Assembly: GCA_031552845.1 (NCBI GenBank)
Contig: JAVBMC010000028.1
Span: forward strand, 72,394 to 136,393
Source of the DNA: Kiritimatiellia bacterium
GTDB lineage: Bacteria > Verrucomicrobiota > Kiritimatiellia > RFP12 > DVOR01
Direction of reading: 5' to 3'
DNA length: 64,000 nucleotides
Part shown: piece by piece, positions 1 to 16,594 of the stretch
Layout of the letters: each line of letters starts with the position of its first letter
How positions within the stretch are numbered: position 1 is the stretch's first letter
Notes under the pieces: model-generated
Databases searched by the model: none
The model's input: the letters and a program-made list of their open reading frames with translations, nothing else
Told to the model about the DNA's origin: nothing
Made by a program: the position numbers and the translations under genes

Positions 1-2047
1 GGATTTGATCGTACTCAGTCGGGGCTAGCTGGCAAATAAAATCATTTTCAATGTGATATGTTTCATTAATGTACTTACGTATTACCGAATTTTTATGCGT
101 CGAATCAATGAGCCGATAGATTTGAAGCTTCTCGTACCCGTTTTTTGCATCTCGGTAGAGGGTCAAAAGAAATTTATTGTCAGCAAGACATGAAACGGTA
201 TTTTGATAATCAAATGAAGGAAGAACAAGCATCTCCCTTATCGTCTCCATACCTTTGTTTGTGTCCTTCGCGCTCAAAGGCATATATGAGCCATCCAGGT
301 TTCTTCTTCGATGATCCTCTGGCGTTTGACGTCCTTTTAAAAGATTTGAGAGCAGTTGATAAGTATCACCTAAATCATCGATGGTTTCAAAGTAACGCCT
401 CAGATAAATTAGTTTGATGATTAAAGGACATGTTGATCTAATAACGCTACTACATATTTGGCCAAAAGTGAGCATTTTGTCGGCTGTGATCAGGCGTTCA
501 GTAAGATTGCCGTCAGAAGCCTTTAAAAAATGAGCGGTTGAAATCGACGAAAACATTCTTTTCAGCACCTTCACCGTATCGATCACGGGCTCGATGTCGT
601 GAGTCAGTAACAGAACAGTCTTACCCTTGAACGAGTGAAAATCTTGAAAGAGCATGTTCAAGATCGCAAATTTCTTATCCTTGTCGAAGGAAGAAATAGG
701 GTCATCCAAAACGATCAAGTCTGGTTTTTTCGACAAACACTCAAACATGAAAAGAACCAAAGCGAAAGCATTACGTTCGCCGAAACTCAAATGCTGACTG
801 CCCCCCGAGACAGCTTCTGTGTATTCCACATGTCGAAGACGCAGGCGATGCCCATCGCTCTCATCTGTAATCAGCACCTCATATTTGTAACCGGCATTCG
901 CAAGGAAGCCATTGATCGTGCTGAGGTTTTCCTCAATGAGTTTCTTTGTAGCTTTGCGTTGTTTATTGATCTCTCCTTGCAATCTACCAGCATCGACCGA
1001 AAGCTCATCGAGTTTGCCGTTTAAGACTGCAATGATGCGCTGTGTTTCAGTTGAGTTTAGGTGCTCAAAAAAAGTTAAATCTAGACGAAGTGTCGGCAGT
1101 TTTTCAGCAACTTTCTCAGTTTCTTTAAAACTCTGGCCAGACAAGGACTTTAGTTGCTCAAGTTTGTCTGTAAGGGTGCCGATCTGAGTTTTTATGGAGA
1201 TCAAGAAATCAGTGTGCTCTTTTTGAAGCCCATCTTTCTGCTTGATAATCTGGTTAATTTTTGCCCGCGCTTCATCTGAAAAGTATTTTCCCAACTTTTC
1301 AATCACTCCAATAATCTTTGTGAGATGTTCAATAGTCTTCTTGTCGTATTCTTCGGAAAACCTTTTAATGGTCTCTCGTTTTGCGGTGGCAGGCAAGGTG
1401 CAAAACGGGCAAGCGTGGCTGATCTCAAGAAAGGGTTGTCCCTGCTGTTGCCAACCAATCCAAGATATATTTTTTTCGTGCTTCAGAAATGGTTCGTATT
1501 CCTCCAGCCCTTTGGGAATATGTTCATATTTATTACCTCTTTCCAACGCCTTATAACCGGGGCTAGCTTTTGATATCTCACTTTTTGCAGTCAATTTAAA
1601 ACATCCGGAAAGTTCACGAAGGTCCGTGAGAAAAAGATCAAGATCTGGATCCTCGGAAAAGGCCGACCTAGTTTTTTTGACGATTCCCTCTATTGCCTGA
1701 AGATGTTGCTCATAGTCAGGGGTTTTGATGAATATCTCAAAACTGTTTGCTACGAGTTCGTCCGGTTTAAATACAAATTGTTCCAAGTAATTTTCGTTGA
1801 AAATCCTGATACTGCCAATGCCCGCAAGACCATCAACCTCGGGCACAAGATTCTGCGGATTATCTTGTCTGAGCTTGAATGGAAGCAAATCAACCAGCGT
1901 AGCTTCATTTGATATCTTACGTTCTATGGCGGTGGCAATCGTACTCTTGCCGGTTCCATTGGCACCGTATTTGATATTCAGTTTTCCCTGTTCAATCTGG
2001 ATTTCTCCTTGATTGATATTATTGCAGTTCTTGAATATGATTTTCAT
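1..2047 (-). CDS. AAA-family ATPase, RloC/PrrC-like (restriction-linked anticodon-nuclease-type ATPase); partial, C-terminus beyond window start
   Basis: Hand translation of the minus strand from ATG (revcomp of cat 2045-2047) gives MKIIFKNCNNINQGEIQIEQGKLNIKYGANGTGKSTIATA... with a Walker A GANGTGKST. RBS aaggaa sits 7 nt upstream. No stop to position 1. Contains a coiled-coil-like region with an HACPFC (CxxC zinc-hook-like) motif. Lies directly downstream of hsdS in the same operon. Low GC (~40%). Confidence 0.7.
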   Translation of the reverse strand, partial: MKIIFKNCNNINQGEIQIEQGKLNIKYGANGTGKSTIATAIERKISNEATLVDLLPFKLRQDNPQNLVPEVDGLAGIGSIRIFNENYLEQFVFKPDELVANSFEIFIKTPDYEQHLQAIEGIVKKTRSAFSEDPDLDLFLTDLRELSGCFKLTAKSEISKASPGYKALERGNKYEHIPKGLEEYEPFLKHEKNISWIGWQQQGQPFLEISHACPFCTLPATAKRETIKRFSEEYDKKTIEHLTKIIGVIEKLGKYFSDEARAKINQIIKQKDGLQKEHTDFLISIKTQIGTLTDKLEQLKSLSGQSFKETEKVAEKLPTLRLDLTFFEHLNSTETQRIIAVLNGKLDELSVDAGRLQGEINKQRKATKKLIEENLSTINGFLANAGYKYEVLITDESDGHRLRLRHVEYTEAVSGGSQHLSFGERNAFALVLFMFECLSKKPDLIVLDDPISSFDKDKKFAILNMLFQDFHSFKGKTVLLLTHDIEPVIDTVKVLKRMFSSISTAHFLKASDGNLTERLITADKMLTFGQICSSVIRSTCPLIIKLIYLRRYFETIDDLGDTYQLLSNLLKGRQTPEDHRRRNLDGSYMPLSAKDTNKGMETIREMLVLPSFDYQNTVSCLADNKFLLTLYRDAKNGYEKLQIYRLIDSTHKNSVIRKYINETYHIENDFICQLAPTEYDQI

Positions 2048-2065
2048 TGAGGTGATTCCTTGAGA

Positions 2066-3241
2066 TCAAATCAATCTGGTTCTTCCGGTTAAAAGCTCCT
2101 GCATCATGGCTTGCTTGAGGGCGCGGGTCTTCTCCCGTCGCTGCTCCAACGCCGCCAGCTCCGCATCCATGTCCGTCAACACTTCGGCGATGGCGGTTTG
2201 TTCGGGGAAAGAAGGAAGTTTAAGCATAAGTGTCTTTAAGTCTTTCCCATAGAGATGATGGATTGTGATTCCTTGGGTAAGTTCGGCAATTTCATGTCTC
2301 CTTGCTTGCGTCAAGTAGTTCGCTAGAAAGACAGGGGCGTAGTCATTATCTTTTCGCCGGATGATGATAATGTCCCCGCCAAGCGCCACGTTGTCCATGA
2401 GGAGCACCGATGCAGTAGCCAAATCAATTCCGGTGGTCGTCGTAGAACCGGGCATTAGTACATCACCTTGAATTGAGGGACAACCGTCACTTGAATTTGT
2501 TAGACTGAAAACGTCCGAAATTACCCGGCCATAGGTAGTGAATAACTCGCCATAAAGAATGCATTGGTGAGTTCCTGAAGTCGTTGTCAGTGATTTCGAA
2601 AGTGCGTTTCCTTTCAAAACATCTGCGATGCTCCCCAATCGTATTTCTCGCCACTCGCCGGAAAAGCCGGAGAGACGGGTTTGGCTGGTGAGGAGTTGCT
2701 GCATGGTGGCCTGTTTGAGGTCGCGTTTTTTGGCGATTAGCCGATCCAACCCACCCAGCAGCTCATCCACATCGCTTAACGCCTCCGCGATAGCGTGTTG
2801 TTCGTTTTTGGATCGTGGCACTCCGATCCTAAGTTGAAGAATCTTGGAGACTGATAATCCCGGCTGGGCCGATGCTTCGGATAAGCGATTAAGGCGCATT
2901 TCTCCGAGGGCATAGGTTAAGAACTTGATGTTCGTGTCTTCGAGAGGGGTCACAACCACAGCGTGCTCTGATGCGAAGAACATCCCGGTTACACCAATTA
3001 CGTTACCGCATAGTGCGCCTTGCCGACCAATGATCGCAAATGATCCGGAGTGGGTATATTGGGACGTAAAGCCCCGCAGTCCATTCCCACCGTAGCAAGG
3101 ATATTGCGAGTGCTCGGTAATTCTTGACGCCGTGATGGTCTCGCCACTCTTCATCGAGGATATTGCTGAAAGTGTCTTTACCTCCCACTCCTCCGGAATG
3201 ACTCCGACCTCGGTCTGCTTGTATCCGGTCTTCACTTCCAT
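2066..3241 (-). CDS. hsdS: Type I restriction-modification specificity subunit HsdS
   Basis: 391-aa ORF with two target-recognition domains and conserved HsdS coiled-coil repeats (LPSFPEQTAIAEVLTDMDAELAALEQRREKTRALKQAMMQELLTGRTRL, and the central ...LIAKKRDLKQATMQQLLT...). Overlaps hsdM by 10 nt. Confidence 0.9.
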   Translation of the reverse strand: MEVKTGYKQTEVGVIPEEWEVKTLSAISSMKSGETITASRITEHSQYPCYGGNGLRGFTSQYTHSGSFAIIGRQGALCGNVIGVTGMFFASEHAVVVTPLEDTNIKFLTYALGEMRLNRLSEASAQPGLSVSKILQLRIGVPRSKNEQHAIAEALSDVDELLGGLDRLIAKKRDLKQATMQQLLTSQTRLSGFSGEWREIRLGSIADVLKGNALSKSLTTTSGTHQCILYGELFTTYGRVISDVFSLTNSSDGCPSIQGDVLMPGSTTTTGIDLATASVLLMDNVALGGDIIIIRRKDNDYAPVFLANYLTQARRHEIAELTQGITIHHLYGKDLKTLMLKLPSFPEQTAIAEVLTDMDAELAALEQRREKTRALKQAMMQELLTGRTRLI

Positions 3242-5748
3242 ATCATCCCCATCTGTTTGAGATGCTTTTTTACTTTAGCGGCGAGCACGGCCACTTCGTC
3301 GGTAAGCTGTGGCAACGGGGTGGCGTAGCGTTCCGCAAGTTGGCAGATGCGGCTGGTGAGAGTTCGTGAGACACGATCCAACTCGTCCTGTACAGCGGTT
3401 GTTATGATGGCCATCCATTTGTCGTCCACGACGAGGGTCTTGATGTCGTCCTCGGTGAGCGTGGGGTATTTGACGTAGAGTTTGTTTTCGAGATCTGTCT
3501 GTGCGGCTTTGAGCCGTGCCTTGGTGCCGGTCTGTCTGTTGAGCAGAGCGGCGTAGTCTTTGAGGGCTTGGCGTTCCTCGGCGTAATCTGGATCACTCTC
3601 GATTTCCTTGAGACGGGTTTGCACGGATTTTGATGTGATTTTCTGCTTGTCACCTTGGCCTTCGATGGCTTCCGCGAGTAGCCCTTTCTCACCGCTGTGC
3701 TCCTCGCCGCTGTGCTCCTCACGCATTTCGTCGAGCTGTTGCTCAATGCCGGCTAGTCTAGCTTTGATGGTTGCAATGGCATGGCGTTCAGCGGTGAAGT
3801 AACGGGCAATCAGCAGGTCAGCGGGGAGGAGATCGGACTTGAAGCGGCGCGTACCTTTCTTGACGTCTTCCTCCTCGGGCCAGACGAGTTTGCCTTCCTT
3901 GTTTTTGATCTGCGTGATTTCGCGGAGCAATGCCCCCGCTTTCCATCCGGCGTCGGAAATCAGGTAGCAATCATCCTTCATGGTCGAGTCCCAGTGATCC
4001 ATGAGGTGTTGATAGACATCGTAAGCGTCGAGCAGCGGCACGGTCTTGAAGGTGGCGAGCAAGTCCTCGGAGATGCTTTCAATGAGCGGCTTGGGATGGC
4101 CATTCTGGGCGAAATCTTTGAGCTGAGGAACGGTGGTCTTTTGCCATTTTACGAAGAGCTTTTTGGTCTTGGCTGTGAATGCAATGAATTCGGCGTGAGA
4201 AAAGATTGTCGGATTTACCTTGTCAATGGAACGTTTGAGCTCAAAGTAGCCGGAGCGACTGGACTTGAACAAGGCAGCACGCAGATTAGGCATAATTTTC
4301 CAGTAATTGCCGAGTGCATCAAGGTCGTGTTTCGGGATGCCGCCGCGCAGGTGGCCGTCGATGTCCTGTAGGTCCTCCGGCTCGGTGCTGTCGATGTAGC
4401 GCGGGAGGTTGAGGTTGTAGTCATTTTTTGGGTCGGCGATTTCGGCGACGGAGACCATACGGGCGTAGCGCGGGTCGCTTTCATCCTGCCGGGCGAAGGT
4501 GTCCACGATCCTGTGGATGTCCTGCTCTCGGAGTCTGTTTTTCGGACCGTCCTTTCTGAAGCCTTTGGAGGCATCCATCATGAAGATGCCCTTGCGGGCG
4601 GTGGCGTTTTCCTTGTCAAGCACAATGATGCAGGCAGGAATACCCGTGCCGTAAAAAAGGTTGGCAGGCAGGCCGATGATGGCCTTAAGGTAGCCGGAGC
4701 GGACGAGCTGCTGGCGAATGACAGCCTCGGCATTACTGCGGAAAAGGACGCCGTGCGGAAGAATGCACGCGCCTTTGCCCGTGCTCTTCAGGGAGCGGAT
4801 AATGTGGAGAAGGTAGGCGTAGTCGCCTTGCTTTTTCGGTGGCAAGCCCCAAGGGAAGCGCTGGAATTTGTCATCGCTGCCGTTCTCGCCTAGAGTGAGG
4901 CCGGTGGACCAAGCTTTGTCGGAGAACGGAGGATTGGCAACGACGTAGTCGTAGGTGCGGAGTTTTTGTTCGTTGTCTTTGTCTCTGAACTTGGGATCGA
5001 AGAGGGTGTTGCCCGAAAGGACATTGGCTGTCGGAAAGTCATGCAGGATCATGTTCATACGGGCGAGACCGGCAGTAGTCACATCCTTCTCCTGCCCTTC
5101 GAGTGTAATGTGTTTGCCCGCTTCGGCAGCGACTTTCAATAGTAACGATCCCGATCCGCAGGTGGGATCGTAGGCAGTGGTCCCAGCCTTGGAATTGGCT
5201 GGAGAGATACCGATGACTTTCGCCATGATCCGGCTGACTTCGGATGGAGTGTAGAATTGCCCCTTACTTCTTCCGCTTTCGCTGGCAAAGTGCCGCATGA
5301 GATACTCGTAAGCGTCGCCGAGGATGTCATCGTTTTCTGCGCGGTTCTTTGAAAAATCGAGTGCGGGGGTTTCAAAGATGGCGATGAGGTTGCCCAACTT
5401 TTCGACCTTTTGCGCGCCATCACCGAGCTTGTTGGAGTCGTTAAAGTCTGGAAAATAGCTGCGGGCGAGACGGGAGTTGGTGTCAATGAGCGGTTGGATG
5501 ACCCGCGTGTTGATGAGGTTGCCGATGTCGCTGTTGCCTTTAAGCGCGACCATGTCTTTGAAGCTCGCGCCCTTCGGAATGACGACCGGTGGCTTGAATC
5601 CATCGTAGTCCCCGTATTTGTCGGAGATGTATTTGATGAAAAGCATGAACAGGACGTAGTCCTTGTATTGGCTGGCATCCATTCCTCCGCGCAGCTCATC
5701 GCAGGAAGCCCATAGAGACGAATAAAGGTCAGATTTCTTGATGGCCAT
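3232..5748 (-). CDS. hsdM: Type I R-M N6-adenine DNA methyltransferase HsdM (long form, ~838 aa)
   Basis: N-terminal HsdM_N-like region, SAM-binding motif I, catalytic NPPF motif (VVANPPFSDKAW), and a long C-terminal coiled-coil extension. Confidence 0.9.
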   Translation of the reverse strand: MAIKKSDLYSSLWASCDELRGGMDASQYKDYVLFMLFIKYISDKYGDYDGFKPPVVIPKGASFKDMVALKGNSDIGNLINTRVIQPLIDTNSRLARSYFPDFNDSNKLGDGAQKVEKLGNLIAIFETPALDFSKNRAENDDILGDAYEYLMRHFASESGRSKGQFYTPSEVSRIMAKVIGISPANSKAGTTAYDPTCGSGSLLLKVAAEAGKHITLEGQEKDVTTAGLARMNMILHDFPTANVLSGNTLFDPKFRDKDNEQKLRTYDYVVANPPFSDKAWSTGLTLGENGSDDKFQRFPWGLPPKKQGDYAYLLHIIRSLKSTGKGACILPHGVLFRSNAEAVIRQQLVRSGYLKAIIGLPANLFYGTGIPACIIVLDKENATARKGIFMMDASKGFRKDGPKNRLREQDIHRIVDTFARQDESDPRYARMVSVAEIADPKNDYNLNLPRYIDSTEPEDLQDIDGHLRGGIPKHDLDALGNYWKIMPNLRAALFKSSRSGYFELKRSIDKVNPTIFSHAEFIAFTAKTKKLFVKWQKTTVPQLKDFAQNGHPKPLIESISEDLLATFKTVPLLDAYDVYQHLMDHWDSTMKDDCYLISDAGWKAGALLREITQIKNKEGKLVWPEEEDVKKGTRRFKSDLLPADLLIARYFTAERHAIATIKARLAGIEQQLDEMREEHSGEEHSGEKGLLAEAIEGQGDKQKITSKSVQTRLKEIESDPDYAEERQALKDYAALLNRQTGTKARLKAAQTDLENKLYVKYPTLTEDDIKTLVVDDKWMAIITTAVQDELDRVSRTLTSRICQLAERYATPLPQLTDEVAVLAAKVKKHLKQMGMIWK

Positions 5749-5847
5749 AAATTAGCTTAAAAGGTTGAAATGAAAAAATACAGTTAAATTTCTAGCAACA
5801 GTTAATACCCATATTTGTCCGGAGAGAGCAAACGTCTTGTGCTAACC

Positions 5848-6996
5848 CTAACCGTTTTCCCCAGTGAAATACTCGGCGAGGGTGTGGAGAAACTCTGGTT
5901 TGAGAGAAACGGCTAGGTTTTCTTTCTGGATAACATCCAATTTCTTGGTCAGTTTTGAGAAGCTGATGTATCCGCAGACTTTGCCGAGTGGTTTTTCGCG
6001 GAGCGAGAAGGTGGGGCGGCGGATTTCTTGCGCGACTTTGTTGCGGCGTTCATCCGGTGCCACAAGGAAAAGGTTGATGGATAGATTGGGTTGTAGTGCC
6101 AGCAGGTCACTCATGCGCAGCAGTCCGGAGTAAACCGAGGTGGTGCATTCAATCTCAAACGCAGCCAAGATAGAGTTTCCTTTGAGCCAGAGTACATCAA
6201 TCAGTTCAATTGTCCGATTCGTGGCCTCATTAAATTGTGTGGGGAGCTCTTTCACCATGCGGTCAAATGCACCTAGTTCTTTACTTTTCCATTGGCGTGA
6301 GCGGTCGTTCCGCGCAACCCACAAATCAAATCCCATCTCTTCGCCTAGCTTGAGCAAGCGGTACTGAATCTCGGTGTGCCGTGTAGTGGCAGCGTCTTCG
6401 CCATCTATTACGGTGGATTGTTTTTTAGTCTTTACTGTCTCTTCTGTTTCCGGCACAGTGACCTGTACCTTAATAGTTGCTTTTCCCTTGCGTCGTTCCG
6501 CCATGTAGGTTGGCTTATAGGCTAGCTGTTTGGGGTCAACGGCACGCCAAGTCGGATTTGTATCAGCTTTCTTGAGCAAGGAGAAAATCAAGTCACCATC
6601 GGCCGTATTTTGAACACGCTTAGGACCGCCACGGATCATACACTTATACTTATTCCGATCTTCCGGTCCCGTGTAAAATGCTACTCGTCCTTCTAATTCT
6701 TCCATGGGAACACCGTGTTCGGGCGAAAGCAAAACAAGAGGCTTTACTACAAATCGTACCGGAAAGACATCATCCTGCCAAATTCTTGATTGATCTTTTG
6801 AGCGTTCAACGACCTTTAATGCTCCAACAAGACGCTTCATGCCTCCAGTCAGATAGCACAAGAAGATATCCCCGGATCTTACTTGCTCTATCGCAGCCTC
6901 ATTGGTTTTGCTTTGACGAAATCCTGAAATCCGTGCTCCGGATTTTTGAAACTCCGCCCATGTTGTGGCGGTAAACATATTAAACCAATAGGTCAT
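5848..6996 (-). CDS. EVE/PUA-like domain protein fused to an uncharacterised C-terminal domain (possible PD-(D/E)xK-like nuclease)
   Basis: 382-aa ORF. The N-terminus MTYWFNMFTATTWAEFQKSG...IFLCYLTGG...LVGALKVV resembles EVE/PUA-like modified-base readers. The C-terminal ~150 aa (IDVLWLKGNSILAAFEIECTTS...) has no obvious family. Driven by a TGgTATAAT promoter and a GAGGAG RBS. Confidence 0.5.
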   Translation of the reverse strand: MTYWFNMFTATTWAEFQKSGARISGFRQSKTNEAAIEQVRSGDIFLCYLTGGMKRLVGALKVVERSKDQSRIWQDDVFPVRFVVKPLVLLSPEHGVPMEELEGRVAFYTGPEDRNKYKCMIRGGPKRVQNTADGDLIFSLLKKADTNPTWRAVDPKQLAYKPTYMAERRKGKATIKVQVTVPETEETVKTKKQSTVIDGEDAATTRHTEIQYRLLKLGEEMGFDLWVARNDRSRQWKSKELGAFDRMVKELPTQFNEATNRTIELIDVLWLKGNSILAAFEIECTTSVYSGLLRMSDLLALQPNLSINLFLVAPDERRNKVAQEIRRPTFSLREKPLGKVCGYISFSKLTKKLDVIQKENLAVSLKPEFLHTLAEYFTGENG

Positions 6997-7035
6997 TGTT
7001 CAGGCTCCTCAAAAGCAAACGTCGATCTAAACGCT

Positions 7036-7128
7036 CAACCATGTGCCGATTATACCACGTCATCCCCTTAAAAGCAATCCTCAAGAAATCTTTCTGCGGT
7101 GGCCTTTTGTGGACGGTGTTTCTTGATG
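7036..7128 (-). promoter_or_regulatory. Conserved ~93-bp promoter cassette, copy 1 (-35 TTGCTT, 17 bp, extended -10 TGgTATAAT), driving the EVE-domain gene
   Basis: The minus strand reads ...aagatttcttgaggATTGCTTttaaggggatgacgTGgTATAATcggcacatggttg... ending ~45 nt before the ATG at 6996. It is ~80% identical to the 8696-8788 copy. Confidence 0.6.
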
Positions 7129-7619
7129 CGACTAGCGCGATGTCCATACGCCGTCCGCGGCTGGTATTTTCAATCGGTTCATTTTTCTCGCTCTTCTTCA
7201 GCGTCTCCGTATCTGCCGGGAGTTTCTTCGTTATTTTCAGGGGTCGTATATCAGGTGATATCGTGCTCATAAATCAGGTGATGTCGTACTCGTGTATCAA
7301 GTGATATGGTACCCCGAAAGAAGAGGAGTTTGCACACCTGGCAAATAACTGCTTCAGATACCTCTCCTATCCTCCGCGCCTCCGCGTGAGTTTTTTAGGT
7401 GTCGAGTAGTTTTAGGTATTGCTGCTGGCGTTCTTTGTTTTAATGCAGTATCGGAATGATATCAAACAAAAAAAGTCTTTTAATTCCGTATTGTTCCGAA
7501 TGGATTGCCGCACATATGTGTGTTTGAGCGAGTGTTTCTTGATGGTGGATGCGGGGCTGGTGGTGCGAGTTGCGTGTTTTGAGGTACATTTTGCGGGGGA
7601 GCGAATGGAGTATGTGGGA

Positions 7620-8618
7620 TTACTCACTATTCTTGCCGCCAGTGTCTTTTTGCATTAATGCCCGAATGGCGCGGTCGAAGTCACTTTCAAGCTGCTTCAT
7701 TTCGCGTGCGCGGTAGAGCTCGAATTCTTTTTCAGCCTTTTCGATTGCCTGTTTGTGAGATATGCGTCCGGCATCTTGCAAAATCTTTCTTTTGTGGCTG
7801 AGTATTTGATTGTCGAGTGCTTCAACCCAGTCTTGCATGGTCATTGGGGCTTGTTCCAGCGCCTGAAACTCCGCAAAGTCCAAGAATTGCGATACTAAAA
7901 GATTGAGGCGCTGTAATTCAAGCTCGGAAAGGTAATTTTTCGCTATCCTCACATCGTCTTTTGTGATGTAACCGCCCTTGAAATTGGTCATGCCGACAAG
8001 CGGCTTTTCGTTGTCGACCCGCTCGTGAATCACTTCGGCGGCGGTATGCTCGTGTACTGCAAAATGCAGTTTGTTTTGCACCGTTGCAAAGAATGTTTTG
8101 GTCATATCAGAGCGCGGATCGTAATCCGTCGCCGTAGCGTAAATGTCGGTAACTTGCTGGTAAAAGTTGCGTTCGCTGCTGCGAATGTCGCGGATGCGTT
8201 GTAGGAGTTCCCGGAAATAACGGCCGCCACCGTTTTTCAAGCGATCGTCGTCAAGCGTAAACCCTTTGCGGATATACTCGTTCAGTCGCTTCGTAGCCCA
8301 TTGACGGAACTGTGTGCCGCGTAAAGATTTAACTCGGTAACCGACCGAGATTACCACATCAAGGTTATAATAGTCAACTTGATACGTTTTGCTGTCGGCA
8401 GCAGTTGTTGCAAACTTTGCAACAACTGAATCCCTCATCAATTCGCCCTCTTCAAATACGTTTTTGATATGGCGGGAAATGGTAGATTTGTCACGTTCAA
8501 ATAACTTTGCCATTCGATCGAGAGACAACCACGCAGTTTCTGCATCAAAGTGCGTATCAATTGATATTTTCCCATCTTCTGTCGTAAAAATGATCATTTG
8601 ATTTTCTTTGCCGGTCAT
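7620..8618 (-). CDS. RhuM-family virulence/defense-associated protein
   Basis: The 332-aa product begins ...IIFTTEDGKISIDTHFDAETAWLSLDRMAKLFERDKSTISRHIKNVFEEGEL, the characteristic RhuM N-terminal HTH-like region. RBS AGGAGAA. Confidence 0.8.
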   Translation of the reverse strand: MTGKENQMIIFTTEDGKISIDTHFDAETAWLSLDRMAKLFERDKSTISRHIKNVFEEGELMRDSVVAKFATTAADSKTYQVDYYNLDVVISVGYRVKSLRGTQFRQWATKRLNEYIRKGFTLDDDRLKNGGGRYFRELLQRIRDIRSSERNFYQQVTDIYATATDYDPRSDMTKTFFATVQNKLHFAVHEHTAAEVIHERVDNEKPLVGMTNFKGGYITKDDVRIAKNYLSELELQRLNLLVSQFLDFAEFQALEQAPMTMQDWVEALDNQILSHKRKILQDAGRISHKQAIEKAEKEFELYRAREMKQLESDFDRAIRALMQKDTGGKNSE

Positions 8619-8695
8619 ATCACTGTTCTCCTAATTTCCGTAGCAATGAGTTCGCCCCTGCGGCGGAGTACATGCTTGTGTTGTGTACGTACAAG

Positions 8696-8788
8696 CAACC
8701 ATGTGCGGATTATATCACGTAGTATCGTCCAAAGCAATGCTCAAGAAATCTTTTTGAGCCGGCCTTTTGGGGCGGCGTTTCCTGATGG
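8696..8788 (-). promoter_or_regulatory. Conserved ~93-bp promoter cassette, copy 2 (-35 TTGCTT, 17 bp, extended -10 TGaTATAAT), driving the RhuM gene
   Basis: The minus strand reads ...aagatttcttgagcATTGCTTtggacgatactacgTGaTATAATccgcacatggttg..., ~85 nt upstream of the RhuM ATG at 8618. Confidence 0.6.
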
Positions 8789-9039
8789 AGGATGAGCGGG
8801 CTCTATATTTGATGGCGGAAAGTAGGCTGTGACTGAAGATAGGTTTTATAATTCGGCAGATGCGGAGTGTTTGTGAAATAGAAGGTCGGTTTGGTCGCGA
8901 TGTTCATGCATTATATTCACCTTACGTTATTCTTCGCGACCGAGTCGAGCACATTAAAAGCTATAACCACGCGATTCATCCCCTATTATCTATTCTTTAT
9001 CACTTATTACTTCGCCTTTCATGTTGGAGTCCCCCGACG

Positions 9040-9420
9040 TAGCTCGGATATTTGTGTGAGCCGGGCGGGTATTTTGTCTGAGCCCAGTGTGAAAAATGTG
9101 TGAGCTGAGTCAATATTTTGTCTGAGCCGTATGGATAATTTGTGCGAGCCGGGCAAGAATTTTGTACCACGTGCCTCGCACAAATTCAACATGCGCGTTT
9201 TTCGAGCGTGTTATATCGTCCGTACTCGCGGAGCACGAATCATAATTTTGCGGGATACGTATCAGCGTACCACGCATCACGTATCATCCATTTGCGCATC
9301 ACGTGCTATCGTACTGCGGGATACGTGATATAAGTTTGTGTGTCACGTGACATCGTACCGGATGATGTGTGTCATCGTACTGCGGGACACGTGTCATCCG
9401 TTTGCAGTACACGTATCCTT
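9040..9420. repeat. AT-rich degenerate tandem repeats (TTTGTNNGAGCCGGGC units; cluster of CACGTG-centred palindromes)
   Basis: 9040-9170 holds 4-5 units ...tttgtgtgagccgggc / ttttgtctgagcc / tttgtgcgagccgggc. 9230-9420 holds repeated ...atcgtactgcgggaYacgtg..., cacgtgctat, gtcacgtgacat and gacacgtgtcat. GC content is far below the flanks. Confidence 0.6.
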
Positions 9421-10369
9421 GTGCTGAGAAGCGAAGTAATATGTAGTAGATTAGAGGCAATAAATTGAGCCGAAAATGTTATAATGCCCAATATATGTAG
9501 GTGTTTTGAAGGTAGGGAGGGGTTCACCGAAGGCAGGCGCAGAGGAGGATGGGTGTTACGCGGAGATGCTGAATAAGCGAGCTCCCAACCTGTCTCGACT
9601 TCTCCGAGTTCTTCGACTTCATCACCACTACGAATACGCAACACCGACACTGTCAACGAAAATGTAGGTGCTCCAAAAGAAGGCACAAGCCCGACTTCAC
9701 CGATTTTCGCCGACTTCATCGACATGCAAAGTAGCGCAACAGCGAACATCATAACAAGAGCAGATAATGTGAGTACAGTAAACATGATAAAAGAAAAGTT
9801 GAAAGGTGAAAGAAACGAGAGTCTCGTAGCAGGCTCGACCCAATAGCCTGTTTGTTGTTGATGGCTCCTTGGAGCTTAAGCTCTCGTATGTCGGGGGGCG
9901 GAGATTCGTATTGAACTCCGAGCCACAAGGTCCGAATCAGTGACGAGTCACTCAATGGGGTCAACAGGGATGCAGTTTAGCAGAATTAAGGAATAAGTCA
10001 AGAAGAGAAGCAATAGGTAATAAGTGATAGGTAATAAGTTGTTGAACAGGAGGGAATAGGATGAAGAAAATAAATGGAGAGGGGTAAGCAGGAAAGGCTC
10101 ACGCGGAGGTGCGGAGAGAGAGGGGAAGGGTATCCGCAGATTGCACAGATGCTCGCAGATGGGGGGTGAGAGGAAGGGAGAGAAGGGGCTAGGCGTGGTG
10201 TAGCGGTTTCGGCGAAACGCGCCCTACCTACTGACGCACGCCAAAGAATTCGCATAATGCCGGCGAGGACGTCGGGTGCTTTCAAGCGGCATAACCGGCA
10301 CGCGATTTCGTCGATTTCATAGGCTTCTGCAACAAGCCAACACACCCTGACTGATGGCGCGTCGAGGAG

Positions 10370-11092
10370 TTATTTGATGGCGCCGTAGGCGGCGAAGGTG
10401 GTGTTTTTGTGGAGGAGTTCGACTTGGCGGAAGCCGGATTGGCGGAGGAGGTCGAGCTGGTAGGGGATGGAGCGGGGGGTGTCTTCTTGCGCGATGTAGT
10501 CGAAAACTTGTTGGCAGTAGTCGGCACCGCCGAGGGCGGTGAGGTAGTCGGCGTAGCGTTGTTGCATGAGGCGGTCGATGGCGGGGTTGTCGTGTGCGAC
10601 GAGGTCGGTGATCCAGAGGCTGCCGCCGGGGCGCAGAAGGCGGTGGAGTTTGGCGAAAACGGCTTGCCAGTCGGCATCGTCGCGGAGGTGGTGGAGGACG
10701 GCGGCGGCGAGGATGATGTCGTAGCCTTCAGCGGGGAGGTCGGCGGTCCGGATGTCGGATTGGATGAGGGTGACGGTGCCGGTGGTGCAGGGGGTGACGC
10801 GTTGTTGGGCGCGTTGGAGCATGGGTTGGCTGAGGTCGAGGAGGGTGCAGTTGGCGTCGGGGACGAGTTGGAGGAGTTTGAGGGTGTTGTTGCCGGCGCC
10901 GCAGCCGATGTCGAGGATGTTGCGGATGGGGGTGGTGACGGCATGGGCGGCTTGGGTGATGAGGTCCATGGCGAGGGCGGCGTCGATGGTGGAGGTTTGG
11001 CCGGTTTGGAGGTTGCTGAAGCGGTCGACGTCGGAGTCGAAGCGTTGGCGGATTTGGTCGACGGTGGCTTTGGGGGTGGGTTTGTTGTTCAT
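10370..11092 (-). CDS. Class I SAM-dependent methyltransferase
   Basis: Motif I ILDIGCGAGNNTL, with post-I acidic and motif II regions. The start is assigned to the internal Met (MNNKPTPKATVDQIRQRF...). The upstream 60 codons are low-complexity and probably not translated. Confidence 0.75.
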   Translation of the reverse strand: MNNKPTPKATVDQIRQRFDSDVDRFSNLQTGQTSTIDAALAMDLITQAAHAVTTPIRNILDIGCGAGNNTLKLLQLVPDANCTLLDLSQPMLQRAQQRVTPCTTGTVTLIQSDIRTADLPAEGYDIILAAAVLHHLRDDADWQAVFAKLHRLLRPGGSLWITDLVAHDNPAIDRLMQQRYADYLTALGGADYCQQVFDYIAQEDTPRSIPYQLDLLRQSGFRQVELLHKNTTFAAYGAIK

Positions 11093-11341
11093 GAAGGTAG
11101 TGTAGTATAAAGCGGGGGCGGGGGCAAGCTTTTTAGATGGTTGGGCCGACGGTGTGGAGTGGGGGAGGGTGATTGGTTTTGAGTGGGCGAGCTTGGGTTT
11201 TTGCTGGATAAAGTGTATTAAAATATGGTTTTTATTGGCAGAGGCTGAAAAAGCCTTGCTTTTTGCGTGCATAAAGAGTACAATTACTGCATGTTTAGAG
11301 GGTATGACAAAATAGAGGCCAGATAAAGGAGTGGAAAAGGT

Positions 11342-11881
11342 ATGAAGCGATTATTTTCTGCCTTGCTGTTATTTTCAGTGTTGGCGTGCCGGGCGCAAGC
11401 AGCGGATCCGGCGGTAAATCTGAGTGAGATTCCGACAATCTCGCTGGAGCAGGCTATGGCCCGGGCGAAGGAGGAATTGCCCGATCATGGGTTGGTTTGT
11501 ACGTTGGCATGTTCGCAACGGCAGATGTATGGGGGCGGCTGGTTTTTGGATTTTCGTAACGATCAGGAGCGGATTGTGCTGCGCGTGACGACGACGAAGA
11601 CGTTGCGGAAGTCGAAGGGTAAGAACCGTGGTTATGCTGTGCCGGCGATTGTTTTGACGGATGCTACAAAGGCGTTGGCGTCGAAGACGCTGAGCCCGGT
11701 GATTCATTCGATGTGGGATGGCGTGGCGGAGCGGTGGGAATTGACTGTTTGTACGCGCGGCCATGCGGAGCATTTTACGTATGATGCCAAGAATGGCGTG
11801 CAGACGTTTAAGCCGGCTCCGGGGCATTTTCCGGATAAGATCTCGGATGAGTTGAAGAATCCGACCCCCCTGAAGAAGTAA
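11342..11881 (+). CDS. Secreted hypothetical protein (signal peptide)
   Basis: 179 aa with an N-terminal signal peptide MKRLFSALLLFSVLACRAQA. RBS aaaggag upstream. No recognisable domain. Confidence 0.6.
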   Translation: MKRLFSALLLFSVLACRAQAADPAVNLSEIPTISLEQAMARAKEELPDHGLVCTLACSQRQMYGGGWFLDFRNDQERIVLRVTTTKTLRKSKGKNRGYAVPAIVLTDATKALASKTLSPVIHSMWDGVAERWELTVCTRGHAEHFTYDAKNGVQTFKPAPGHFPDKISDELKNPTPLKK

Positions 11882-11894
11882 TGAGGGTTGAGGT

Positions 11895-11927
11895 TTAAGT
11901 GAAAGGGGCTGCCGAGAGGCGGCCCTT
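11895..11927 (+). terminator. Putative rho-independent terminator
   Basis: GC-rich hairpin ggggctgccgagaggcggccc followed by tttttcg, 14 bp after the stop of the 11342..11881 gene. Confidence 0.45.
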
Positions 11928-11960
11928 TTTCGTATCTTGATGGAGGCAGAAGCTGTAAAT

Positions 11961-11992
11961 AAAAACGCCCCGATTTTTAACCGGGGCGTTCT
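11961..11992 (-). terminator. Rho-independent terminator for the TM2 gene
   Basis: The minus strand reads gaacgccccggttaaaaatcggggcgttttt: an 8-bp GC stem (cgccccgg / cggggcg) followed by a U-tract. Confidence 0.6.
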
Positions 11993-12012
11993 TGTGTGAT
12001 GACTGCGGTTGG

Positions 12013-12225
12013 TTAGACCAACGGGTTGCCGCCGGCGTTCTTATAATTGCCGGAGATAATGAGGATCAGGTCGATAATTACCCAGATGCCGAAGAGGCCT
12101 CCAGTCAGGAGTTGAATGATGCCGATGAGGATGTGGCCGGTATAAAACCGGTGGACTCCAAGCCATCCGAGAAAGAAGCACAACAGTCCAACAACAAGTT
12201 TGCTTTTTGCTTGAGCCATAACCAA
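12013..12225 (-). CDS. TM2 domain-containing membrane protein
   Basis: 70 aa. GWLGVHRFYTGHILIGIIQLLTGGLFGIWVIIDLILI matches the TM2-domain signature (GxHRFYxG...GGxxGIWxxID). Confidence 0.8.
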   Translation of the reverse strand: MVMAQAKSKLVVGLLCFFLGWLGVHRFYTGHILIGIIQLLTGGLFGIWVIIDLILIISGNYKNAGGNPLV

Positions 12226-12325
12226 CCTTTCAATTAGAGTAGAGGTTTGTAATCATGCGGACAGGCACAGTTTACTTTTTTTAAAACTGCATGTCAATGC
12301 AGATGAACGGGGCCTCAGCAATTAT

Positions 12326-13690
12326 TTAGACGCTGATATCGGTATAATTGTGGGGGGTGTTGGATGGGGGTGGCGGTTGGAGGGCGGGCTGGGTTTCGAC
12401 GTGTTGGAAGGTGATGTTGCGTTTGACGATCATCATGCGCACGAGCATGGGCACCGGGAGGGTGGTGGCGAGGGAGAGGACGACGATGGCGTTGAAGAAG
12501 TCGGCGCTGATCATTTGGAGGTTGAGCGCGACGGCCGCGGCGGCGAGGGTGGCGGAGAGTTGGGGGACGGTCATGAGGCCGGCGCAGATGCCTTTCTCGT
12601 TGCTGAAGCCGGATAGGCGCATGGCGATCCAGCCGGAGAAGACTTTGCTGCCGACGAGGCCGATAACGGTAACGAGCGCGATGAGGACGTTGGTCCAGTT
12701 GCCGACGAGCACTTTGATGTTGGCTTGGAAGCCGATGCTGATGAAGAGAAAGGGTATGACGAGTCCGAACCCGATGCCTTCGAGTTTGTGGAGGATGCCG
12801 CGCCGGGGGATGTTGAAGCCTTTGGTGCGGGCGACGGCCATGCCGGAGACGAATGCGCCGACGATGAGGTTGATGCCGAGGAGTTCGCCGAGCAGCACGA
12901 CGGTGAGCACGGTGAGCAGGAAGTAGGTAACGTTGAGGTCGTCGCCCATGGGCAGGCGGCGGGCGATGCGCAGGCGGCGCCAGAGCATCGGCAGGAAGAT
13001 GATAACGAGCGCGATGTAGACGCAGATGAGCGCGACGAAGGCGACGCCAAACCAATTGCCAAGGAAGCTGAGGTCAATCTTGTCGATGAGGGAGAAGTTA
13101 TCGAGCTTGAGAGTTTCGGCGACGGCGAGGCGTTTGTATTGTACGCAGACCGCGAGGAGGATGAGGCTGGCGATGTCGGTGATGACGGTGGAGGAGAGCA
13201 CCGCAATGCCGAAGCGGGTTTTGATGATGCCGAGTTCACGGATGACGGGGAACACGATGCCGATGGAGTGCGAGGCGAAGAGCGAGGCATAGACGTAGGC
13301 GCCGATTTTGTCGGTGGGCTCGAACAGCCAGTAGACGAAGTAACCCGCCGCCGCCGGGATGAGGAAGGTGGCGATGCTCAATAGGCTGACAGCTTTCTTT
13401 TCGCTGCGTAGCATCTTGAGATCGACCTCCATGCCTGCGAGTGCCATGAGGAAGACGAGGCCGAGGAAGCCGATGGCGTCAACAACTTTGTAGAGCGCGG
13501 AGGTGTCGACGGCGTGGCCGAGGAAGTTGTTCATGTGCCCGATGTAGTCGAGCGCGTTCGGGCCGATGATGATGGCAACCGTCATGATCGCGACGACGGC
13601 GGGGACGTGCCAGCGCTTGAAGCATTGGGGGATGATTGCGACGAGGGCAATCAGCGAGAGAAACATCACGAGATAAGTCAGTTGTTCCAT
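12326..13690 (-). CDS. Cation:proton antiporter (CPA/Kef-type Na+/H+ exchanger)
   Basis: 454-aa polytopic membrane protein with ~12 TM segments and a typical CPA-family glycine-rich helix pattern. Confidence 0.8.
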   Translation of the reverse strand: MEQLTYLVMFLSLIALVAIIPQCFKRWHVPAVVAIMTVAIIIGPNALDYIGHMNNFLGHAVDTSALYKVVDAIGFLGLVFLMALAGMEVDLKMLRSEKKAVSLLSIATFLIPAAAGYFVYWLFEPTDKIGAYVYASLFASHSIGIVFPVIRELGIIKTRFGIAVLSSTVITDIASLILLAVCVQYKRLAVAETLKLDNFSLIDKIDLSFLGNWFGVAFVALICVYIALVIIFLPMLWRRLRIARRLPMGDDLNVTYFLLTVLTVVLLGELLGINLIVGAFVSGMAVARTKGFNIPRRGILHKLEGIGFGLVIPFLFISIGFQANIKVLVGNWTNVLIALVTVIGLVGSKVFSGWIAMRLSGFSNEKGICAGLMTVPQLSATLAAAAVALNLQMISADFFNAIVVLSLATTLPVPMLVRMMIVKRNITFQHVETQPALQPPPPSNTPHNYTDISV

Positions 13691-13705
13691 GGTGTCGGGA
13701 GATTG

Positions 13706-15472
13706 TTAGTCGCGCCCGAAGCGGCGGGCGAGCTCGCGCCAGCTGGTCAGGAGCATGGTGGGGCGTCCCTTCGGACACGTATAAGGCATTTGCGTTTGAA
13801 GGAGGCGCCGCAGGAGTTCCTCAATCGCGCGGGCATCAAAGGTTTTGTGGAAGCCGGCGGCGGCGCGTCCGGCGGCTTTGGCGAGAACCTCCTCGCGCCA
13901 GCGTTCGGAGCCGCGTTTTGTTTCGGCGGCTAAGTCGGTCGCGAGGGTGATGAGCAGTTCGCGTGCCGAAACCTCTTGCAAGATGGCAGGGACGGCATCA
14001 ATCATGAAACGGTCGCTACCCATGTCAGCGATTTGAAAACCCATCGTCTGTGCGGCATCGAGAAACGAGCGCAGGCGTGCGGCATCGGTGGGCGGAAGTT
14101 GAAGCGTCTCAGGAATCAACAGCGTCTGCGATGGTACCGGTGCTTCGGCGGTGCGGCGGATGAGCGTGTCGTAAACGATCCGCTCGTAAGCCGCGCGAGG
14201 GTCGAGAGTGATGTAACCCGTGTCAGTCTCTAATAAAATGTACCGTCCGCCTGCGAGGCCGAGAATCTTGTGGTGCTTCCACTGCGGCGTGTCGGGCGAG
14301 GGCGGCAAGTCGAACGGATCAAAGGCGTCGGGTGTCGAGGCGGGTGTCGGAGCCGTCACGGGTAAAGAAGGTTGCGCTGGTTGAGTCAGCGAAATATAAG
14401 GATGCTTGATTGGCGGGAGTTCAAACTCAGCGGTCGGTATCGAAGGAGTTTCCGGAGCTACAACGGGCTGCGCGGGATGGTGTTGGGTCAACGCATTGGA
14501 GATCGCGCGACAGAGAGCATCGCGCAGGTCGTTGGGTTTACGGAAGCGGACTTCACGCTTGGCTGGGTGGACGTTGACGTCGAGGTCTTCCGGCGGGAGG
14601 TCGATGAAGAGGATGAGGATCGGCTTGGTGTCGTTGTCGGTCTTGGGATACGCGGCAGAGACGGCGTAGTTGATGACAGCGGCTGAGGCGGGGCGGTTGT
14701 TGATAAAGGTATAGTATTCGCTGCGGTCGCCGCGCGTGAAGGTGGGATGACCGATCCAGCCGTGGATGCGGATGCCGTTGTAGGTGGCGTCGACCGGGCG
14801 CATGAGTCCGCTGAGGTCGATGTCGAGCAGTTCGGCGATGCGTTCTTCCAGCGTGGCGCCGGCGGGCAGGCGGTAGAGTTCGCGGCCATCGCTTTTGAGG
14901 ATGAGACCGATGTCGGGATGCGCAAGCGCATTGAGGATGAACGTGGCGCGGATGCGGGCGTTCTCAGTGGCGTAGGCACGGAGGAACTTGCGGCGTGCGG
15001 GGACGTTGAAGAATAGGTCGCGGACTTCGACGGTGGTGCCGGGCGGAGTTCCGGCGTCCTTAACGTCGAGGACTTTACCGCCTGCGATGGCGATCTCGGT
15101 GCCGACATCGTCTTGCGGGCGGCGGGTACGCAGAAGGAAGCGCGAGACGGAGGCGATGGAGGGAATGGCTTCGCCGCGGAAGCCGAGGGTGTTGATGCGC
15201 TCGATGTCGTCAACGTCTTTGATCTTGCTGGTGGCTTGACGTTCGAGACAGAGGAGGGCGTCGGCGCGGTTCATGCCACAGCCGTCGTCGTGCACGCCGA
15301 TGAGCGTGCGCCCGCCGTCGGCAGTTTCGATGGTGACGTGGGTAGCACCGGCGTCGATGGCGTTCTCGAGCAGCTCTTTGACGACGGAGGCCGGGCGTTC
15401 AACAACCTCACCCGCCGCAATTTTGTTTGCGACGTGGGCGGGGAGTTGAATGATGCGGGCTTCGGTGTCCAT
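13706..15472 (-). CDS. mutL: DNA mismatch repair protein MutL
   Basis: N-terminus MDTEARIIQLPAHVANKIAAGEVVERPASVVKELLENAIDAGATHVTIE (GHKL ATPase box). 588 aa with a C-terminal dimerisation domain. Confidence 0.95.
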   Translation of the reverse strand: MDTEARIIQLPAHVANKIAAGEVVERPASVVKELLENAIDAGATHVTIETADGGRTLIGVHDDGCGMNRADALLCLERQATSKIKDVDDIERINTLGFRGEAIPSIASVSRFLLRTRRPQDDVGTEIAIAGGKVLDVKDAGTPPGTTVEVRDLFFNVPARRKFLRAYATENARIRATFILNALAHPDIGLILKSDGRELYRLPAGATLEERIAELLDIDLSGLMRPVDATYNGIRIHGWIGHPTFTRGDRSEYYTFINNRPASAAVINYAVSAAYPKTDNDTKPILILFIDLPPEDLDVNVHPAKREVRFRKPNDLRDALCRAISNALTQHHPAQPVVAPETPSIPTAEFELPPIKHPYISLTQPAQPSLPVTAPTPASTPDAFDPFDLPPSPDTPQWKHHKILGLAGGRYILLETDTGYITLDPRAAYERIVYDTLIRRTAEAPVPSQTLLIPETLQLPPTDAARLRSFLDAAQTMGFQIADMGSDRFMIDAVPAILQEVSARELLITLATDLAAETKRGSERWREEVLAKAAGRAAAGFHKTFDARAIEELLRRLLQTQMPYTCPKGRPTMLLTSWRELARRFGRD

Positions 15473-15526
15473 GGGTGCGGATTATACCACAGGCAAAGCC
15501 CGGTTTCAATTCTAAAGGGGTGAGGC

Positions 15527-16594
15527 TCAGGGCGCGGGCTGAAGGAGCTTGGCGATTGCCGGGCCGAAGATTTGGCCTTGGCGCATCATGCCGAGATCGT
15601 TGGGGTGGGTGTTGTCGACGGTTGCTTCGCCGTCGGTGCCGAGCATGCCTTTGGCGGGGAGGTAGTGGAGGTTCGCCCACTTGACGGGGTCGGCTTTCTT
15701 GAGCTTGGCGTAGATGCCGGCGAGGAGTTTGGAACGGCTGGTCTGCCGATCATCGCGGTCGCATTGTTCGCAGATGAGGATGGGCGTATTGGGGCGGGCG
15801 GCTTTGATGATTTCGAGGAAGGGTTCGACGTTGCTGGAGACGAGCTGGTCGCTCATGTTCCACAGGCAGTCGAGCACGTAGAGCGAAGCGGGGATTTGGA
15901 TGAGCTGCTGTGCGAGCTCGGGTTCCATGCGGGCGGCACCCGCGAAGCCGAGGTTGACGATGGGGGTCTCGGCGATGCGTCCGACAATAGCGGTGTAGGC
16001 CAAACCGGGGCGCGAGGCGCAAGCGCCTTGCGTGATGGAAGTGCCGTAAATCACAACCGGCAGCTTTACTTTACGGCTGGCGATGGGAGCGATGGTTTGG
16101 CCTTTGGGCAGCTTGAGTTCAAAGAGAACGGTGGGGTTGTAGAGTGGCAGGTAGACGAGCGTTTCGGCTTTCGGCGTGATGGCGATGCTTACGGTGTTGG
16201 TGTGTTTATGAGGGCGGCCATGGACGATGGAGCACCAGGTGCCGTTGAGGCGTTGGTAGACGTCGATGCCGCTGACGCCGCTGGCGGACATGTGTGTGAA
16301 GGCGAGGTTGGCGCTGCCGGGAATGCCCCATGTGATGTTGAGTTCCTTGGCGTCGGTGGTGAACGCAAAGGCCATGCCGGTGGAGTGGCGCGAGGCGTTC
16401 CACACTTTCTCCGGGAGCACTTCCTTCGCGGCAAGCGGGAAGCGGTCGAAGGGTTTCTCGGTGTTGGCGAAGCCTTTGCCTTCGAGGCATTCCATCAGCA
16501 GTGCATCCGGCACGGCCACGAGGTTGGGCTTGTCTTGTGCAGAAGCGATGGAGGCGCTCAGGAGAAGAGTGCAGGCTATGAGAAGGTGTTTCAT
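15527..16594 (-). CDS. Secreted SGNH/GDSL-family hydrolase (probable carbohydrate O-acetylesterase) with an N-terminal beta-sandwich domain
   Basis: Signal peptide MKHLLIACTLLLSASIASA. GDSL-like block VVIYGTSITQGACASRPGLAY. C-terminal DxxH-like TVDNTHPNDLG. Confidence 0.7.
   Translation of the reverse strand: MKHLLIACTLLLSASIASAQDKPNLVAVPDALLMECLEGKGFANTEKPFDRFPLAAKEVLPEKVWNASRHSTGMAFAFTTDAKELNITWGIPGSANLAFTHMSASGVSGIDVYQRLNGTWCSIVHGRPHKHTNTVSIAITPKAETLVYLPLYNPTVLFELKLPKGQTIAPIASRKVKLPVVIYGTSITQGACASRPGLAYTAIVGRIAETPIVNLGFAGAARMEPELAQQLIQIPASLYVLDCLWNMSDQLVSSNVEPFLEIIKAARPNTPILICEQCDRDDRQTSRSKLLAGIYAKLKKADPVKWANLHYLPAKGMLGTDGEATVDNTHPNDLGMMRQGQIFGPAIAKLLQPAP

Follow-up and report, generated by a model that had tools for sequence, protein, structure and literature searches.

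A predicted EVE–NmeDI_C fusion protein from a Kiritimatiellia bacterium represents a large family of putative modification-dependent restriction endonucleases

R.NmeDI of Neisseria meningitidis is a Mg-dependent type II restriction enzyme of 351 amino acids that recognizes RCCGGY and cuts 12/7 nucleotides away on both sides of the site; it is a tetramer, needs two sites and requires only Mg2+, and its authors have already proposed a type IIS-like design (PMC2095814). Fusions of PUA-superfamily readers with nucleases have been recorded separately. Bell, Wolf & Koonin (2020) described "a substantial variety" of EVE-PD(D/E)XK proteins as putative type IV enzymes and also listed YTH- and DCD-like readers fused to PD(D/E)XK nucleases (PMC7641849). 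According to the available portion of Lutz et al. 2019, YenY4I (EVE-DUF3427-PD-(D/E)XK) was the sole PUA-PD-(D/E)XK fusion in their screen and was tested, and modification dependence of PUA-nuclease fusions was inferred from the absence of a nearby methyltransferase (PMC6765204). Here we describe a gene at positions 5848-6996 of a 64,000-nucleotide stretch of DNA, referred to as the window, from a Kiritimatiellia bacterium (assembly GCA_031552845.1, contig JAVBMC010000028.1, positions 72,394 to 136,393 of the forward strand). Its product joins an N-terminal EVE/PUA-like reader domain to a C-terminal nuclease domain of the NmeDI_C family, and it probably acts as a single-polypeptide, nucleoside triphosphate (NTP)-independent, modification-dependent restriction endonuclease (type IV or type IIM-like).

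The gene and its parts are as follows.

5848..6996, minus strand: complete gene including the stop codon, EVE + NmeDI_C fusion, 382 amino acids (from the list of open reading frames (ORFs) and the translation)
7010-7005, minus strand: Shine-Dalgarno-like GAGGAG, 8 nucleotides 5' of the ATG, found by reading the sequence
6517..6996, minus strand: EVE/PUA-like modified-base reader domain, residues 1-160
6394..6516, minus strand: inter-domain linker, residues 161-201, acidic and predicted to be disordered
5863..6393, minus strand: NmeDI_C nuclease domain with PD-(D/E)xK fold, residues ~202-378
6196..6198, minus strand: D267 codon (gat), predicted metal-binding Asp at the "PD" position, directly before core strand beta-2
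6148..6156, minus strand: E281-I282-E283 codons (gag-att-gaa), the "(D/E)xK" position, at the end of core strand beta-3

The ORF is intact, starts with ATG and lies on the minus strand exactly where the initial annotation had placed it. Among 5.8 billion proteins searched, more than 4,555 matched the 382-residue protein, a count that is a lower bound. The best 120 homologs are each about 380 amino acids long, align end to end with 58-67% identity and share the same Met start. Because of these matches we conclude that 5848-6996 is a real gene and not a chance reading frame. Every source that names the homologs calls them "hypothetical protein".

The initial annotation had assigned the C-terminal part to no family. 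This does not hold, since the domain is NmeDI_C (Pfam PF27126) by the precomputed assignment, both for the exact protein and for all 120 top homologs; the Pfam set that we scanned ourselves lacked PF27126. The PADLOC model REase_II (PDLC03534, 351 positions, which is the length of R.NmeDI) aligned with residues 203-331 at model positions 174-308 (E 2.5e-16). A full-length NmeDI architecture was not found, the N-terminal 160 residues being the EVE domain. As the alignment is confined to the C-terminal half of the NmeDI model, the part shared with R.NmeDI is the predicted cleavage module. A search of the PDB sequences with the window protein as single query gave no match, and a PDB profile search with the C-domain alignment A2 returned only TPR artefacts from some N-termini and no solved NmeDI_C relative by sequence.

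To describe the fold, we used an AlphaFold2 model of the window protein built from 38 homologs. The nuclease domain of the model contains the alpha-beta-beta-beta-alpha-beta core of the PD-(D/E)xK superfamily. It matched the R.BspD6I small subunit (score 8.8), Hna (8.7), N.BspD6I (8.6) and NgoMIV (8.2), followed by FokI (7.5), SdaI (7.2), 3ijm, a restriction-endonuclease-like fold (7.1), and AF1548 (7.1). As modelled, the domain is thus structurally nearest to the type IIS cleavage modules of the FokI/BspD6I kind. An acidic residue is present by strand 2 and a (D/E)-x-K site on strand 3, with Glu replacing Lys. Conservation agrees with this arrangement: D267 and R294 occur in 63/63 diverse C-domains, E281, E283, H207, D297 and R327 in 62/63, and D231 and R317 in 60/63, and the window protein carries all of these residues. 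The D…(D/E)xx pattern pointed out in the initial annotation corresponds to the conserved catalytic core IDVLW...FEIE, with D267, E281 and E283 in 62-63 of the 63 domains. Structure prediction likewise bore out the nuclease fold that had been suspected in the C-terminal part, and an EVE fold was found beside it.

The model of the N-terminal domain showed a predicted PUA-like pseudo-barrel. In Foldseek searches it matched the EVE structures 2gbs, 1zce and 2eve (E 1.7e-4 to 3.5e-3) as well as VcaM4I, an EVE-HNH enzyme, numerous YTH domains and ASCH; in the fold searches, YTH domains ranked just below PH1033. A profile made from 35 diverse N-domains of the family and compared with the PDB covered the whole domain and retrieved PH1033 (E 9.8e-15) and MJECL36 (E 1.7e-13). 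Pfam EVE (PF01878) was matched individually by 28 of these 35 N-domains (best E 7.9e-9) and DCD by 4. On the strength of the structure matches and the family-profile evidence, we conclude that the N-terminal domain is a genuine EVE/PUA-like reader, nearest to the archaeal UPF0310 subfamily. The UPF0310 proteins PH1033 (1wmm) and MJECL36 (2p5d) differ in that they stand alone, with ~145 amino acids and without a nuclease domain. The claim that the first ~130 residues are EVE-like is thus borne out by fold matches and family profile alike.

In EVE domains, the walls of the base pocket are formed by W26 and Y82 in 2eve and by W82 in VcaM4I (PMC7897488). In the present family, F26 is conserved in at least 90% of members and W73 of "PIW" is the family consensus. 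In the alignment with PH1033, F26 is paired with the W of "NVWGV" and W73 with the F of "RIF". F26 and W73 are candidate pocket walls, equated with the 2eve and VcaM4I residues by linear position only. The linker that follows the reader has a predicted local distance difference test (pLDDT) value below 50 at residues 163-201. It encloses a conserved stretch, RKGK..T..VSVPE; G171 and P182 are invariant (alignment A1).

A word-indexed search with the reader domain as sole query yielded no more than 19 proteins, all short or truncated, and gave no news on other fusion partners. These 19 proteins have 98-243 amino acids and show 48-58% identity to the reader domain alone; one of them (243 amino acids) retains part of NmeDI_C. 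They may be stand-alone EVE proteins of this subfamily, or else copies that have been truncated or pseudogenised.

When the C-domain alone was used as query in an exhaustive search, 1,730 representative clusters were obtained at 50% identity, and 254 of these had E<=1e-30. NmeDI_C is always C-terminal, preceded by N-terminal regions of 0-320 residues. Of the top 150 C-domain representatives, about 45 carry an EVE-type N-domain as here. Among 43 other representatives, Mrr_N was found in 10 and TPR repeats in 5, so that the module is combined with three or more types of N-terminal domain (EVE, Mrr_N and TPR). Mrr_N takes its name from Mrr, which is a type IV enzyme. The TPR-NmeDI_C fusion has no obvious DNA-reading domain. 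Full-length NmeDI orthologs were sought among the non-EVE representatives, but in 10 of 10 tested the similarity was limited to the C-terminal half of the PADLOC model.

C-domain-only relatives of ~40% identity also occur in 180 plasmid records; 64 matching records are Enterococcus plasmids, and several relatives are labelled "type II restriction endonuclease" by PGAP. Three such plasmid relatives of 420-437 amino acids from Sphingomonas, Burkholderia and Variovorax (L089 3215-4528, L090 1412-2674, L091 3233-4495) are solitary and lie in copper/heavy-metal resistance regions, where none of them adjoins a DNA methyltransferase gene. The type II label on solitary NmeDI_C proteins is probably wrong. 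The phage collection contained no homolog.

The fusion gene was found in 403 of 185,579 species representatives (~0.2%), with a patchy distribution. Identities of 50-67% extend across at least 10 bacterial phyla and the methanogens. The carriers include Verrucomicrobiota, Acidobacteriota, Planctomycetota, Chloroflexota, Hydrogenedentota, Myxococcota, Deinococcus and Nitrospirales and, among the archaea, Methanoculleus, Methanoregula, Methanolinea and Methanosarcinales. To compare gene neighbourhoods, we surveyed 80 homolog loci from different species and clustered the neighbours over ~73 loci. There was no conserved neighbour: the 383 genes within three positions fell into 355 clusters, the largest of which was present in 4 loci. 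An HsdM-like gene lay within 10 kilobases (kb) in 4 of the 80 loci, and genes related to the HsdS, RhuM and AAA_13 genes of the window were found in none of them. DNA methylases accounted for 8 of 129 immediate neighbours and belonged to three classes (N6_N4 4, N6 2, D12 2). The others included AAA_21 ATPases (4), AAA_15 (2) and DDE transposases (3). Sampled contexts comprised a LysR regulator, a sugar-utilisation cluster, an AAA_21/AAA_15 pair, integrases or transposases, and housekeeping genes.

Thus, neither a cognate adjacent DNA methyltransferase nor a conserved hsdM/hsdS/hsdR linkage was found. Because there is no conserved neighbour and the proteins are 50-67% identical across distant phyla, the gene is a horizontally mobile, self-sufficient single-gene module without a cognate methyltransferase. 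Membership in a type I restriction-modification (R-M) operon was rejected, given an HsdM-like gene at just 4 of 80 loci. For the same reason the adjacency to type I R-M genes seen in the window is incidental. The initial annotation had correctly located the gene beside such genes (HsdM at 3232-5748, HsdS at 2066-3241), but the neighbourhood lends its functional proposal no support. The patchy distribution and the solitary position also set the protein apart from a housekeeping family.

Two features of type IV or modification-dependent enzymes are present in the family, a reader fused to a nuclease and the absence of a cognate protective methyltransferase. A solitary gene without such a partner is what a type IV-like enzyme predicts. 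In the mechanism that we propose, the EVE domain would scan duplex DNA and flip a modified base into a hydrophobic pocket, probably walled by F26 and W73, in analogy to VcaM4I. A flexible linker of ~40 residues would tether the nuclease domain, an NmeDI-type module that would use D267 and E281-x-E283 together with a divalent metal. Oligomerisation via the nuclease domains would probably be required, like in R.NmeDI and the MspJI-type enzymes, and both strands would be cut roughly a helical turn away from that base. DNA as the substrate, base flipping, cutting at a distance and oligomerisation are all predicted from these relatives. By default, the target would be cytosines of the 5-methylcytosine (5mC) or 5-hydroxymethylcytosine (5hmC) type, a guess taken from VcaM4I. 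No protective methyltransferase would be needed, because the host DNA would lack the modification that is read. If cleavage called for at least two modified sites, like that by NmeDI, self DNA with sparse modification would be spared.

Several observations weigh against this interpretation. The window protein alone gave no match to Pfam EVE (PF01878) at E<=0.1, so that EVE membership by sequence is seen at the level of the family and not in the single protein. Its Pfam scan yielded a chance match only (Tea_helical, E 0.08), and NCBIfam PRK00809 remained sub-threshold (E 9e-5, 22 bits, cut-off 139). Near-invariant family positions are lost in the window protein at 14 of 71 sites of the reader (including W56L) and at 8 of 107 sites of the nuclease. 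Given the 14 deviating positions, the reader of this copy may have drifted, being altered, weakened or changed in specificity. Modification dependence itself is assigned by analogy, and EVE domains also bind modified RNA, which makes DNA a presumed substrate. The neighbouring type I methylase is of the N6-methyladenine (m6A) type, which would create a conflict if the reader accepted m6A without sequence context. Finally, the nuclease has E-x-E instead of the canonical Lys motif. A Glu in the Lys position is also present in BamHI, and the presumed competence of the motif rests on this precedent and on the activity of NmeDI.

The neighbouring features of the window are listed below.

8618-7620, minus strand: RhuM (PF13310, E 9e-107), matched end to end by the PADLOC candidate PDC-S05 (E 6e-149)
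5748-3232, minus strand: HsdM, 838 amino acids, matched end to end by PADLOC MTase_I (PDLC03027)
3241-2066, minus strand: HsdS
1-~2050, extending past the left window edge, minus strand: AAA_13 ATPase (PF13166, E 4.7e-18), at least 682 amino acids, Walker A "GANGTGKST"
7036-7112, minus strand: 77-nucleotide upstream element, a direct repeat with an 81% identical copy at 8696-8772 directly upstream of RhuM

The hsdM gene lies 99 base pairs (bp) 3' of the EVE-NmeDI_C gene on the same strand. No HsdR was found inside the 64-kb window, and hsdR may lie beyond its left edge. The AAA_13 gene follows directly downstream of hsdS. We take AAA_13 to be the family of the PrrC/RloC anticodon nucleases. 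PrrC/RloC are typically embedded in type I R-M operons. RhuM forms the head of the island and gave weak N-terminal helix-turn-helix matches. HsdM is unusually long; its N6_Mtase domain ends near residue 460 and is followed by ~380 amino acids without a Pfam domain. The guanine-plus-cytosine (GC) content of the island (1 to ~9,800) is 0.42-0.55, compared with ~0.60 (0.58-0.63) in the adjacent chromosome (10000-18000), which encodes a Na/H exchanger, MutL and a GDSL lipase. The lower GC content suggests that this R-M/accessory island was acquired horizontally. No tRNA gene that might serve as an integration site was found in 1-20000, the island and flanking ORFs scanned matched no integrase family, and an Rfam scan of 5600-10400 gave no match.

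On its coding strand, the 77-nucleotide element contains TTGCTT (7077-7072), a 17-nucleotide spacer and TATAAT (7054-7049) with a TG extension. In the copy by RhuM, the coding strand has TGATATAAT. Each copy has one extended -10-like motif, TGgTATAAT or TGaTATAAT, 17 nucleotides past TTGCTT. The two copies seem to represent a duplicated promoter/leader cassette for the EVE-NmeDI_C gene and RhuM, as far as can be read from the sequence. A scanner for consensus promoters and terminators reported nothing above chance, and for the promoter-like element this is explained by the -35 hexamer, which matches at only 3 of 6 positions. The earlier suggestion that the gene has its own promoter is therefore plausible by reading of the repeated element but gained nothing from the scanner. 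No minus-strand terminator-like site was found between the EVE-NmeDI_C gene and hsdM, so that read-through into hsdM is possible. A 96-amino-acid ORF at 6980-7270 was judged spurious, as it overlaps the gene start, has no family match and covers the repeated upstream element.

Two further repeats were observed in the upstream regions. A 23-nucleotide repeat (TCGTATATCAGGTGATATCGTGC) with the palindromic core ATATCA-GG-TGATAT occurs at 7244-7312, 8708-8730, 9292-9314 and 9336-9358, with three tandem copies 5' of the promoter-like element of the EVE-NmeDI_C gene and three copies 5' of RhuM. These repeats look like candidate operator sites for a regulator. At 9050-9165, four copies of a 28-nucleotide unit (ATTTGTGTGAGCCGGGC...TTTTGT) follow one another with start-to-start distances of 44, 22 and 22 nucleotides. 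The units lie in a ~750-bp non-coding stretch past RhuM; they are iteron-like and have no Rfam match.

Four other explanations have to be weighed against a modification-dependent endonuclease. The protein could be a conventional type II/IIS-like enzyme that acts on unmodified DNA, with EVE as a sequence-specific binder and the methyltransferase encoded nearby (HsdM) or elsewhere. Its C-domain family indeed takes its name from a genuine type II enzyme that has a cognate methylase (PMC2095814), PADLOC classifies it as REase_II, the plasmid relatives bear the PGAP type II label, and a methylase gene lies 99 bp downstream on the same strand with no minus-strand terminator in between. However, the recognition half of NmeDI has been replaced, with only positions 174-308 of the 351-position model aligned, and no methyltransferase is conserved (4 of 80 loci, 8 of 129 neighbours, the largest neighbour cluster in 4 loci). 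Transfer of a type II nuclease that had no methylase linked to it would be lethal, but the present gene has spread widely by transfer, and the plasmid "type II" relatives inspected are solitary as well. We therefore regard a type II enzyme as unlikely. About equally improbable is an RNA-directed or abortive-infection toxin, in which EVE would read modified tRNA, ribosomal RNA or phage RNA and cleavage of RNA, or indiscriminate cleavage, would lead to growth arrest. In line with this idea, EVE and YTH domains are classic RNA binders and YTH ranks under PH1033 in the fold searches; an AAA_13 ATPase, presumably linked to PrrC/RloC, is part of the same operon, and AAA_21 and AAA_15 recur among the neighbours (4 and 2 of 129). 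EVE domains have also been reported in toxin-antitoxin contexts and by type I R-M systems (PMC7641849). The nuclease module is, however, homologous to a proven endonuclease of double-stranded DNA, its best structure matches are restriction enzymes for double-stranded DNA, and there is no antitoxin-like or other conserved partner. Moreover, the solved EVE-nuclease fusion VcaM4I works on DNA (PMC7897488).

The position of the gene between RhuM and hsdM, on the same strand and within one low-GC island, could instead mean that the protein is not autonomous but assists the type I R-M system next to it, for instance as a sensor with a backup or modulating role for HsdMS(R); PIN-GNAT-EVE fusions and DCD domains have been reported with type I R-M operons (PMC7641849). 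This role is very improbable, as HsdM-like genes occur within 10 kb at 4 of 80 loci and related HsdS, RhuM and AAA_13 genes at 0 of 80, sampled homologs lie among housekeeping genes, sugar-metabolism genes or transposases, and the gene has its own promoter-like element. We give just as little credence to a nuclease of DNA repair or genome maintenance that would nick near a damaged or non-canonical base like NucS/EndoMS or Vsr. The gene is patchily distributed (~0.2% of species representatives) across the phylogeny, with bacteria-archaea pairs of more than 50% identity. It has no conserved repair-gene neighbourhood and is found in mobile-element regions and defence-type neighbourhoods.

A modification-dependent endonuclease therefore remains the interpretation that we prefer. 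The earlier proposal of a new type IV-like effector is supported as regards the type IV-like reading, but the kind of fusion is not new, as it has already been listed (PMC7641849). With more than 4,500 sequences, the family reaches from Verrucomicrobiota and Acidobacteriota as far as the methanogens and is present in about 400 species representatives, and models for finding defence systems register only a lone "REase_II" component. The island of the window would thus combine a type I R-M system with at least one independent, probably type IV-like, enzyme. Should the specificity differ from 5mC/5hmC, the protein could serve as a reagent for epigenome mapping. A literature search found no paper linking NmeDI with EVE and none citing PF27126.

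Compared with R.NmeDI, the C-terminal nuclease module is homologous, and the cut-at-distance behaviour of R.NmeDI is predicted for the present protein by analogy. The link to the NmeDI cleavage domain accounts for this behaviour of R.NmeDI as a modular, type IIS-like design. The two enzymes differ in that the N-terminal half of R.NmeDI, presumably responsible for RCCGGY recognition, is replaced here by the EVE reader, that R.NmeDI has an overlapping gene for a cognate C5-methyltransferase whereas the EVE-NmeDI_C family has none, and that R.NmeDI cuts unmodified DNA. In MspJI-type enzymes, which are tetramers, cleavage takes place at a fixed distance from the modified cytosine, a parallel to the tetrameric NmeDI that also cuts at a distance. 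In MspJI, AspBHI and LpnPI, a PUA-superfamily (SRA-like) reader likewise stands N-terminal to a PD-(D/E)xK domain, and the enzymes are NTP-independent (PMC6765204). VcaM4I and TspA15I, which are modification-dependent EVE-HNH endonucleases, share the design of reader and nuclease.

YenY4I contains an additional DUF3427 and is rare, with six close homologs as compared with the thousands of members of the EVE-NmeDI_C family; Lutz et al. 2019 make no mention of NmeDI. NmeDI is also unmentioned by Bell et al. 2020, whose EVE-PD(D/E)XK list may already include the present family. The END nucleases (Yee et al. 2025, preprint) resemble the EVE-NmeDI_C proteins in combining a type IIS-derived nuclease module with a sensor of non-canonical bases in a single gene without a methyltransferase. 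They are often located near type I R-M systems in defence islands and are missed as a system by DefenseFinder and PADLOC. They differ in their nuclease (PLD versus PD-(D/E)xK), their sensor (inactive EndoIII versus EVE) and their reversed domain order. The combination of a PUA-superfamily reader with a nuclease is thus an established design, of which EVE-NmeDI_C is an uncharacterised example. What is specific to the present case is that the nuclease could be recognized as the cleavage module of NmeDI and that the protein belongs to a large, conserved family.

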